Part shown: positions 7,203 to 7,517 of the stretch, piece by piece
Layout of the letters: every line of letters begins with the position of its first letter
Position numbering within the stretch: the first letter of the stretch is position 1
Origin: Escherichia phage WPEC3
Sequence record: PV611058
Length of the DNA: 64,000 nt
Strand: one strand, 5' to 3'
The notes under the pieces: generated by a model
Database searches by the model: none
What the model was told of the DNA's origin: nothing
Seen by the model: only the letters and a program-made list of their open reading frames with translations
Translations under genes and position numbers: made by a program

Positions 7203-7517
7203 TTTAATGTTTCCTTATCAGTGGTTGATGTAAGTATTATACTCGTTTACTTTCTATTGTCAAACTATTTTATCAGGGGAGTTTTTCGTATGTCTTACTC
7301 CTGGACTACTTAACGGGGTTACTTATTTCGTTCCCCGTCCTGATGTAAAACATTATACTTGATTCTAAGTACAATGCAAGTACTTTTTTAAAAATAGTTT
7401 TCAGTACTAGCCACCAGCAAACAATAGATACATTTATGCACCCTGTGGGCTGATTTGTTTCTATGCGTATATAATAGCAAAGGGACTGACCGGAGTCAAT
7501 CCCTTTTTCAAATATTT

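Follow-up and report, generated by a model that had tools for sequence, protein, structure and literature searches.

The early region of Escherichia phage WPEC3 carries a short non-coding block in two copies, A and B, the transcribed part of which very probably belongs to a conserved family of structured RNAs whose type member is the A1-A2 element of phage T7. The stretch analyzed (hereafter the window) comprises 64,000 nucleotides (nt) of one strand of sequence record PV611058; copies A and B are located at 7203-7400 and 18960-19150, respectively, and are read on the minus strand. The block had been noticed earlier, from the letters of the window, as an orphan double cassette that may encode a small RNA or may have lost its gene (the original prediction). 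Each copy is best explained as a gene-less early transcription unit, in which a sigma-70 cassette promoter is followed by a non-coding RNA of 73-75 nt and then by the promoter of the next gene.

Pairwise alignment of the two spans gave 170 identical columns out of 204. Within them a tight block (7221-7358 vs. 18979-19115) was ~94% identical, with 6 substitutions and one 2-nt indel, and a second common piece (7376-7409 vs. 19134-19166; 32/35 identical) was found beyond a diverged promoter spacer of ~15 nt. The inner 31-nt pattern CAGGGGAGTTTTTCGTNTGNCTTACTCCTGG occurred exactly twice in the 64 kilobases (kb), with 0 occurrences expected from 100 shuffles. The alignment thus bears out that a block of ~190 base pairs (bp) is present twice with few differences. 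The layout read earlier on the minus strand was likewise found in both copies: promoter P1, a GC hairpin, an AGGAG without a start codon or an open reading frame (ORF), promoter P2, and a gene. The genes 3' of copies A and B are mutually unrelated (162 of 300 nt identical, about chance for a global alignment) and fall into different PHROGs; the duplicated unit is therefore the non-coding block alone.

The count of two holds for the near-identical copies, but a diverged third copy (copy C, 15673-15601) had been overlooked. Listing the sequence 3' of every minus-strand promoter exposed this paralog after the promoter at 15708: ACAUCAAGACGGGGAGCACUAAGUAGACCGCCAGUAAGUCGAACGAAAAACUGGACACGUCGAGAAAACUUUGAU. 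Copy C retains UAAGUAG, UAAG, and ACGAAAAAC, while GGAG..CUCC is changed to CCAG..CUGG and AUCAGG..CCUGAU to AUCAA..UUGAU. A scan of the window with a covariance model of the core only (R1) gave scores of 55.7 bits for copy A (7314-7276), 53.7 for copy B (19069-19031), and 52.7 for copy C (15658-15620). The model recognized exactly these three members in the window; the next best match scored 7.4 bits.

Relatives were found well beyond the window. A BLAST search with the 84-nt transcribed part of the block returned 44 phage records at 89-100% identity. Among those 44 records, every Asteriusvirus had two type-A/B copies, or four in the longest records, in which the terminal repeat is apparently given twice; single type-A/B copies were present in Justusliebigvirus (muut, outra, EmilieFrey) and Vequintavirinae (A73, W70, A7_1, A5-4). 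BLAST with copy C matched all the Asteriusvirus records that it retrieved (35 at >=80% of the query) and gave partial matches in the jumbo phages Munch, 7t3, SE_PL, PHA46, fENko-Kae01, and Hallingskeid, in the rV5-like phage LTH01, and, at positions 553-587, in T7-like Yersinia phages. A degenerate pattern scan of IMG/VR yielded 65 loci; ~25 coding false positives were discarded by context, and 59 distinct member contexts were obtained after filtering, including T7 itself (locus L089, 552-580). The exact type-A pattern, searched in IMG/VR, metagenomes, and GTDB genomes, was found only in Asteriusvirus contigs and in three chance matches within coding DNA (L005, L012, L017). With the T7 core as query, BLAST matched 486 phage records, among them T7, T3, phiYeO3-12, and phiA1122, at one place per genome. 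In records starting at the genome end the T7-like element lies ~500-600 bp from the left end. These matches are unannotated, save for the A2 -35 signal in phiYeO3-12 and a few 'hypothetical protein' calls. The T7 sequence printed in PMC11863960 places the element between the host-polymerase promoters A1 and A2, the former of which has been experimentally established (PMC11863960). Counted from the A1 start AUCGAGAGGG, the T7 element extends from about +39 to +96. The family as defined in this analysis has ~550 members in the phage collection.

The family core consists of the junction UAAGUAGNC, followed after 2-3 nt by a stem, helix P2 (4-5 bp), which closes a 16-17-nt loop of the form (N)UAAGN'CnnACGAAAAN. 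In an alignment of 28 distinct cores from all lineages (A4), 19 positions were invariant. The four core pairs of helix P2 were 100% paired in these cores, a figure inflated by the filter with which members were selected (P2 complementarity; helices P3 and P1 were unused for selection), though every contextually true member passed it. Three of the four pairs change on both sides (CG/GC, CG/GC/UA, UA/AU), giving the variants GGAG:CUCC, CCAG:CUGG, CCUG:CAGG, and CUUG:CAAG, and a fifth pair is often present. Helix P3 is formed between two trinucleotides, G-N-C in the junction UAAGUAGNC and G-N'-C in the loop. This helix was paired in 27/28 cores, the middle pair being A-U in 19, C-G in 4, and U-A in 4, with a single mismatch (EmilieFrey). 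The covariation score was 0.498 vs. 0.145 for shuffles; none of 500 shuffles reached the observed value, and the signal was lost when the partners were slid by 1-3 columns. Because P3 crosses P2, the core is an H-type pseudoknot, with the A-rich nnACGAAAAA as its third loop. A mini-hairpin proposed by RNAalifold inside the loop (UC..GA) was rejected in favor of P3, as locus L042 breaks the mini-hairpin (A.A) and keeps the P3 pair.

The core is enclosed by a further helix, P1, and RNAalifold finds P1 and P2 unguided. In 18 T7-like members (alignment A2) substitutions occur on both sides of all five pairs of P1, with pairing in 98.9% of cells; examples are GUCAA:UUGAC, GAUUAG:CUAAUC, GUCGGU:ACCGAC, GUCAC:GUGAC, and GUCAUC:GAUGAC. 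The 3' strand of P1 follows P2 by 0-3 nt, and the distance and topology of the helix differ among three subtypes. The 5' strand precedes a hairpin (hairpin 1) in copies A and B, Munch, and L087, which results in a three-way junction. In the T7-like phages it is found instead within the loop of an additional hairpin, also covarying (CCGG:CCGG, CCAG:CUGG, CGGG:CCCG), so that a second pseudoknot is formed. Hairpin 1 is absent from copy C, LTH01, EJP2, Hallingskeid, L046, and L054. Comparison of the P1 duplex energy with shuffled 3' strands over 14 lineages gave a Fisher combined p of 2.7e-6; single tests were modest (AUCAGG:CCUGAU of copies A and B, dG -8.3, copy A p = 0.015; copy C p = 0.36). 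Covariation in a predicted fold had been named as a check on the block, and it was found: folds were predicted for both copies, and the helices covary across the family.

Closer relatives point the same way. Changes among the 16 distinct type-A/B variants collected are mostly in the loop of hairpin 1, and two C-to-U changes in its 3' strand lead to G.U pairs on the transcribed strand only. Since G.U pairs are tolerated only in RNA of that strand, these changes fit pairing at the RNA level. The orientation of family members is always that of transcription, and they lie in sense within ~100 nt downstream of a sigma-70-type early promoter (predicted promoters in the window). The pattern of substitutions argues that the element is an RNA element, selected at the level of a single-stranded nucleic acid, in the transcription sense and right after a promoter. 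A DNA-level role, in which the block serves the downstream promoter as an UP element or regulator site or is a mere homology linker in modular recombination, would have some grounds in T7, where an A-run and CAGG lie at about -47 to -38 of A2, the place of the UP-element proximal subsite. Moreover, the 3' strand of helix P1 forms the A2 -35 hexamer in T7 and the TTGATA -35 in copy C. However, the core and the next -35 are separated by anything from 2 to ~43 nt, no promoter follows in L046 and L054, and compensatory changes in three helices together with one-strand G.U pairs and the constant orientation are unexpected for a duplex-DNA site. We consider this explanation highly improbable.

The AGGAG had been described as resembling a Shine-Dalgarno (SD) sequence. 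The sequence is present, and no ATG, GTG, or TTG was found between it and the next promoter in copies A and B, nor was any conserved ORF. In relatives AGGAG is replaced by CCAG, CCUG, or CUUG with a compensating 3' strand; the apparent SD is therefore the 5' strand of helix P2 and not a ribosome-binding site. Two candidate functions built on this motif were rejected: a CsrA sponge (CAGGACG / CAGGAGU), as its GGA motifs are lost in copy C and the T7-like phages, and an SD-sequestering thermometer or leader, as the GGA/SD sequence is not kept there. Coding readings were likewise rejected. Owing to the 2-nt indel, the frame opened by an ATG in the -10 region is 15 codons long in copy A but 31 in copy B; with the +1 C indel of the muut copy, no reading frame is kept; and plus-strand mini-ORFs differ between copies. 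Short 'hypothetical protein' coding sequences (CDSs) have been annotated over the element on either strand, at 12993-13088 in JP4 (L020) and at 1868-1963 and 12998-13117 in ELP-22 (L021). Such calls (e.g., JP4_CDS0265, ELP22_0011, ELP22_0051) are probably spurious.

These results also bear on the suggestion that the block is a cassette that has lost its gene. According to this explanation an ORF was deleted by recombination between cassettes, and the likeness between phages reflects recent horizontal transfer. The 5' part (ACAUCAGGACGGGGAA..CCCC) is indeed like ordinary cassette leaders, AGGAG is at the SD position, type-A copies are highly identical (89-100%), and cassettes of a comparable kind are known to recombine with deletion of intervening genes (PMC2839356). 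It is already contradicted by the covariation, though: copy C and the T7-like phages keep the pairing and not the SD (CCAG, CCUG, CUUG for GGAG). In addition, searches for a start codon, an ORF remnant, or a parental gene were negative, the +1 indel of muut breaks the frame, and conservation is higher in the core than in its flanks (121Q: 97.6% identity for the core vs. 85.7% over a 301-nt query). The module is conserved across four unrelated lineages with different promoters and at least six downstream genes, and no ancestral gene fragment was found. We give loss of a gene hardly any credence.

Judged by its occurrence in the sequences compared, the element behaves as a portable module that is not tied to the gene downstream. 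Conservation of the unit begins at the predicted transcription start (ACAUCAGG...) and extends to ...CCUGAUAAAA. Genes downstream of the type-A/B element are of at least six kinds, and the copies in Justusliebigvirus and Vequintavirinae also sit between two promoters, sometimes different ones; in A7_1 and A5-4 both differ. A stretch comprising the element, promoter P2, and the gene for 91 amino acids (aa) (window 6927-7358) was ~92% identical at the nucleotide level to positions 2278-2709 of muut (L001). This similarity is evidence of a recent exchange of early-gene modules between unrelated coliphages (Asteriusvirus and Justusliebigvirus). A metagenome contig assigned to Asteriusvirus, OEQN01004447.1 (L015), has a copy-A-type upstream region fused to a copy-B-type element and its downstream gene, and looks like a recombinant between the copy A and copy B loci within the repeat.

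Comparison with known families was negative. Rfam 15 gave no match at gathering score in the whole window, and only chance-level matches (E >= 3) at 7100-7550; nothing was found on the elements in L001 and L002 or in T7 1-1200. ARAGORN detected no tRNA or tmRNA genes in the window. No match to the T7 core was returned by BLAST from 5,426 Escherichia coli genomes; an origin in the host or a prophage was therefore rejected. For the downstream proteins, Pfam and PHROGs returned unknown functions only and no common family. In the literature, older subscription papers on the T7 left end excepted, we found no structure or function for the T7 A1-A2 segment and no description of the element, and nothing specific turned up on transcriptomes of Rak2-like phages.

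It is tentatively suggested as the likeliest reading, though at less than even probability, that the element is a structured leader RNA which acts in cis on early transcripts of the host polymerase and raises their processivity. The nascent element would fold on leaving the host polymerase, and its invariant unpaired nucleotides would then engage a conserved host component, likeliest the elongation complex or an elongation factor. Such engagement would make early transcription from the first promoter processive and resistant to terminators or Rho, much as phage put and nut leaders do. The position of the element is compatible with this role. In the jumbo and rV5-like phages no more than ~3 nt separate its start from the predicted start of transcription. 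Intrinsic-terminator-like hairpins directly precede copies A and C, as well as those of A73, W70, LTH01, and A7_1 (GGCCCGCCATTGTGCGGGCCTTTCTTTT in these four), and copy B follows a long hairpin between convergent promoters; the element thus marks the first transcript of an early unit. The presence of invariant unpaired nucleotides in phages with unrelated proteomes argues for a host partner available before phage proteins are made. In most T7-like phages a perfect boxA (GCTCTTTAACAA) is located 53-393 nt downstream in the same leader.

Several observations weigh against a cis-acting leader. The promoters and start sites in the window are predictions, and the inflation of P2 pairing by the selection filter also counts here. 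The element has neither a terminator nor an obvious expression platform, and matches to boxA in the window did not exceed chance (2 found vs. 3.0 expected, both elsewhere). As the GC hairpins of downstream cassettes lack U-tracts, it is uncertain that antitermination would be needed there. Of the five early units in the window that are bounded by terminators, the two starting at 11925 and 4110 are without the element. In T7, the A2 and A3 transcripts do not carry it, yet the same early operon is transcribed. Finally, the T7 leader is removed by RNase III cleavage at R0.3, so that a tether acting in cis would be lost.

Cleavage of this sort would suit a different role, that of a trans-acting small RNA or decoy. 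The element would be cut from the primary transcript, accumulate early, and titrate a host protein or RNA, e.g., a defense or RNA-decay factor; its release would be by RNase III in T7, where this enzyme frees the leader, and by RNase E in the A/U-rich stretch after helix P1 in the jumbo phage. The full-strength promoter of copies A and B serves nothing else, the three copies per genome are all in the terminal repeat, so that their dose is doubled in virion DNA, and invariant single-stranded nucleotides suit one conserved partner. Nevertheless, no terminator or defined 3' end is present, the T7-like phages carry only one copy per genome, and BLAST, within its sensitivity, detected nothing complementary in E. 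coli. We regard the decoy role as rather unlikely. The original suggestion of a small RNA stands insofar as the transcribed part belongs to a widespread structured-RNA family with covarying helices; it falls short in that the element has no terminator of its own, and no terminator-like site was found between the element and promoter P2 or the gene in copies A and B. 'Structured leader' or 'stand-alone RNA module' is a more fitting name for it than 'discrete small-RNA gene'.

Two further roles were considered for an RNA at this position. A compact fold could shield transcripts from promoter P1 against 5'-end-dependent decay (RppH, RNase E). Helix P1 does begin at about +2/+3 of the predicted transcript in jumbo and rV5-like members, and ordinary cassettes of the same region likewise open with a GC hairpin. 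A simple hairpin would suffice for this purpose, however, and the 19 invariant core positions are unneeded for end protection; the T7-like element starts at about +39 behind another 5' hairpin, and processing separates it from the mRNAs. A stabilizing function is accordingly unlikely. The core may also be viewed as a riboswitch-like aptamer that binds a small molecule, or a host factor reporting the state of the cell, and tunes continuation from the first early promoter. Such a view is in keeping with the invariance of its junction and loop nucleotides, the covariation of its stems, the A-rich strand that crosses a short helix, the size of ~36 nt, and the location in untranslated leaders. On the other hand, there is no conserved expression platform, and a promoter at 2-43 nt or boxA is found downstream instead; the neighboring genes, variable and of unknown function, give no clue to a ligand, and no known riboswitch model matches. 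A regulatory aptamer of this type is very unlikely.

The leader reading, to which we return, has its closest functional parallels in HK022 put, lambda nut, and the boxB-boxA leader of rrn operons. These are short structured cis-acting RNAs after early or rRNA promoters that work independently of downstream genes, and the promoter-proximal position of the element, at the start of a unit and after terminators, is compatible with the put/nut arrangement. The T7-like element shares its leader with a perfect boxA, and its loop, ending in GAAAA beside the 3' strand of the stem, recalls the lambda boxB loop. Unlike these systems, the element has no sequence or Rfam match to them, and neither a boxA nor an N-like factor was found for it in the window. 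put consists of two plain hairpins, whereas the element has a pseudoknot core, and an action on polymerase is here only inferred. Small H-type pseudoknot aptamers, such as the preQ1-I riboswitch, and the leader pseudoknot of T4 gene 32 resemble the element, a compact pseudoknot (~36 nt) of a 5' leader in which one strand is A-rich and unpaired nucleotides are invariant; they differ in the order of elements and in sequence, and no Rfam model matches.

The T7 A1-A2 segment is related by direct homology. T7 GGAUAAGUAGACAGCCUGAUAAGUCGCACGAAAAACAGGUAUUGAC agrees with the window copies in junction and loop and has a covarying P2, it lies downstream of one host promoter and abuts the next, and the three tandem promoters at copy A recall A1-A2-A3. 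It differs in that the 5' strand of helix P1 is in the loop of an extra hairpin (CCGG..CCGG), forming a second pseudoknot, and in its start at about +39; copies A and B are nested three-way junctions starting at +2/+3. The non-coding A1-A2-A3 early promoter region of T7 has been named an 'internalisation signal' (PMC11863960). A separate similarity was noted at T7 498-530 (L089), where the initial transcribed sequence of A1, AUCGAGAGGGAcacggcgaauagccaUCCC, resembles the transcript start of jumbo cassettes, ACAUCGAGAGGGGGAAnnnnUUCCCC (e.g., window 6896-6860); a promoter-proximal hairpin module may be common to T7 and the jumbo phages too.

The surroundings of the block correspond to promoter-early stem-loop (PeSL) cassettes, which have been defined in T4-type phages (Arbiol et al., 2010, PMC2839356; Comeau et al., 2014, PMC4122927). 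From ~900 to 22100, the minus strand of the window carries an array of small genes with at least 25 cassettes, each driving one small ORFan. A cassette is made up of an A/T-rich stretch, TTGCA(A/T/C) or TTGACA, N16, TATAAT, ~8 nt, the hairpin GGGGAnnnnUCCCC, an SD, and ATG. PeSL arrays are alike: a strong sigma-70-like promoter with A/T-rich upstream sequence precedes a stem-loop (GGGG..CCCC), which is followed by an SD and a small ORFan. Promoter P1 of the block (family D1) and hairpin 1 correspond to the PeSL promoter and to the GGGG...CCCC stem-loop, respectively, and the modules are swapped between phages with breakpoints inside promoters, as has been proposed for PeSLs. A stem-loop acting as terminator or attenuator and recombination of cassettes into mini-circles are further PeSL traits (Arbiol et al., 2010), to which the swapped flanking promoters and genes of the module relate only indirectly. 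However, the SD and gene start codon at the end of a PeSL are both missing from the duplicated unit. The junction, P2, P3, and loop of the element are not PeSL features and occur also in T7-like podoviruses outside PeSL arrays, and the phage studied here is Rak2-like and not T4-type. We classify the cassette array as of a known, PeSL-like kind and the element with structured promoter-proximal phage leader RNAs.

The features of the three copies are compiled in Table 1. Promoter P1 of copy A is of the standard cassette type (promoter families D1 and D3 have 25 and 18 copies), with a predicted transcription start near A7346/C7345; for copies B and C the start is expected at about 19103 and 15675, respectively. 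It is missed by a generic promoter scan, as TTGCAT matches TTGACA at only 3/6 positions; it was found in a list of 46 minus-strand promoters in the window, compiled with regular expressions. The A/T-rich AAAACTATTTTTAAAAAAGTAC precedes promoter P1. Copy A has a minimum free energy fold of -21 kcal/mol (z = -2.9), and the loop of hairpin 1 is 14-16 nt long vs. 4-6 nt in ordinary cassettes. The terminator-like hairpin with its embedded promoter P0 indicates that copy A opens a transcription unit, behind three tandem promoters. Upstream of copy B there are convergent promoters, one on the plus strand (19184-19212, TTGACA-17-CATAAT) and one on the minus strand (19363-19335, TTGACT-17-CATAAT). The ORF-less ~120 nt between them form a long hairpin on either strand (z = -3.8 and -5.0), and the region 19184-19363 may be a sense/antisense RNA pair or an insulator.

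Table 1. Positions of promoters, RNA features, and adjoining genes at copies A, B, and C; (-) denotes the minus strand.
Feature	Position	Sequence or pairing	Remarks
Copy A promoter P1	7379-7352 (-)	-35 TTGCAT 7379-7374, N16, -10 TATAAT 7357-7352	Promoter list from regular expressions
Copy A structured RNA element	7344-7272 (-)		73 nt; R1 covariance model, fold, covariation
Copy A closing helix P1	7344-7339 : 7277-7272 (-)	AUCAGG : CCUGAU	
Copy A hairpin 1	7338-7333, loop 7332-7319, 7318-7313 (-)	ACGGGG, loop, CCCCGU	
Copy A junction	7312-7304 (-)	UAAGUAGUC	
Copy A helix P2	7301-7298 : 7281-7278 (-)	GGAG : CUCC	AGGAG = 7302-7298
Copy A loop	7297-7282 (-)	UAAGACAUACGAAAAA	
Copy A pseudoknot helix P3	7306-7304 : 7294-7292 (-)	GUC : GAC	
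Copy A promoter P2	7263-7236 (-)	TTGACA-N16-TATAAT	12/12; serves downstream gene
Gene 3' of copy A	7202-6927 (-)		91 aa, PHROG 14947, function unknown; outside repeat
Hairpin immediately upstream of copy A	7506-7479 (-)	AAAGGGATTGACTCCGGTCAGTCCCTTT	Terminator-like; family D15, 4 copies
Promoter P0, embedded in hairpin upstream of copy A	7499-7471 (-)	TTGACT-N17-TATTAT	
Copy B promoter P1	19136-19109 (-)	TTGCTA-N16-TATAAT	
Copy B structured RNA element	19101-19027 (-)		75 nt; R1 model, predicted fold
Copy B closing helix P1	19101-19096 : 19032-19027 (-)	AUCAGG : CCUGAU	
Copy B hairpin 1	19095-19068 (-)	ACGGGGA..UUCCCGU	One G.U pair
Copy B junction	19067-19059 (-)	UAAGUAGCC	
Copy B helix P2	19056-19053 : 19036-19033 (-)	GGAG : CUCC	Loop 19052-19037
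Copy B helix P3	19061-19059 : 19049-19047 (-)	GCC : GGC	Middle pair C-G vs. U-A in copy A
Copy B promoter P2	19018-18991 (-)	TTGACA-N16-TATAAT	12/12
Gene 3' of copy B	18958-18347 (-)		203 aa, PHROG 5162, function unknown
Hairpin before copy C promoter	~15785-15760 (-)	AGCCCACCTGGTGGGCTTTTTT	Intrinsic-terminator-like
Copy C promoter	15708-15681 (-)	TTGACA-N16-TAGAAT	
Copy C element	15673-15601 (-)		Diverged paralog without hairpin 1
Copy C outer helix	15673-15669 : 15605-15601 (-)	AUCAA : UUGAU	Overlaps -35 TTGATA of next promoter
Copy C helix	15668-15665 : 15618-15615 (-)	GACG : CGUC	
Copy C junction	15656-15648 (-)	UAAGUAGAC	
Copy C helix P2	15645-15642 : 15625-15622 (-)	CCAG : CUGG	
Copy C loop	15641-15626 (-)	UAAGUCGAACGAAAAA	
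Copy C helix P3	15650-15648 : 15638-15636 (-)	GAC : GUC	

The window represents the terminal-repeat early region of an Asteriusvirus, a Rak2-like jumbo coliphage of ~350 kb. The 301-nt query was 100% identical in Escherichia phages Ecwhy_1 and ph0011 and 97.7% identical in vB_EcoM_G17, at equal coordinates. The block is present in four copies where a record gives the terminal repeat twice, and in one record it is covered by a 'Direct Terminal Repeats' annotation, which places the block inside the ~22-kb terminal repeat; the whole cassette array appears to lie within this direct repeat. Other repeated features were observed in the window. A four-copy composite element (1406-1498, 4161-4253, 7427-7519, 11975-12067) consists of a hairpin, AAAGGGACTGACCGGAGTCAATCCCTTT, which is terminator-like on both strands and has a minus-strand promoter (TTGACT-N17-TATTAT) inside its stem, followed by the conserved motif GCCCACAGGGTGCAT; related composites are found at 50890, 53588, and 58210. 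Repeats with an 8-nt period (CGTCTAGC / CATCCAGC type, at least nine units) are present at 21593-21744, toward the inner end of the early array and terminal repeat, and may be an iteron, packaging, or repeat-boundary signal. Between 27271 and 46490 there are 16 tandem paralogous genes of ~1.2 kb, starting with MLPFVRM(F/V)(D/K)YGN, every one with a TATAAT promoter and an SD to itself; an RCC1-like annotation (regulator of chromosome condensation) has been given to homologs in PBECO4 and JP4. Six tandem repeats of ~204 bp, 60-100% identical, occupy 51701-52821.

With these results, a gap in the annotation of the window, the 'orphan cassette', is replaced by three defined non-coding features. 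If the family is real, as the covariation indicates, then T7, the best-studied lytic phage, carries a conserved pseudoknotted RNA in its A1 leader, and the same module has spread to at least four unrelated lineages of enterobacterial phages. This would point to a shared, unnamed host interaction in the first minute of infection and would offer a possible reason why the first of the tandem early promoters of T7 differs from the others. A broader proposal, which we consider quite unlikely, is that the element is an undescribed aptamer-like RNA, spread horizontally among T7-like podoviruses, rV5-like and Justusliebig myoviruses, and Rak2-like jumbo phages, all virulent phages of enterobacteria, and that it binds one host component or metabolite and thereby sets the processivity of host RNA polymerase on the first transcripts. 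Were this the case, the T7 transcripts concerned would be those that pull the genome into the cell, and the leftward promoter array of the right-hand terminal repeat of the jumbo phage would pull inward likewise.

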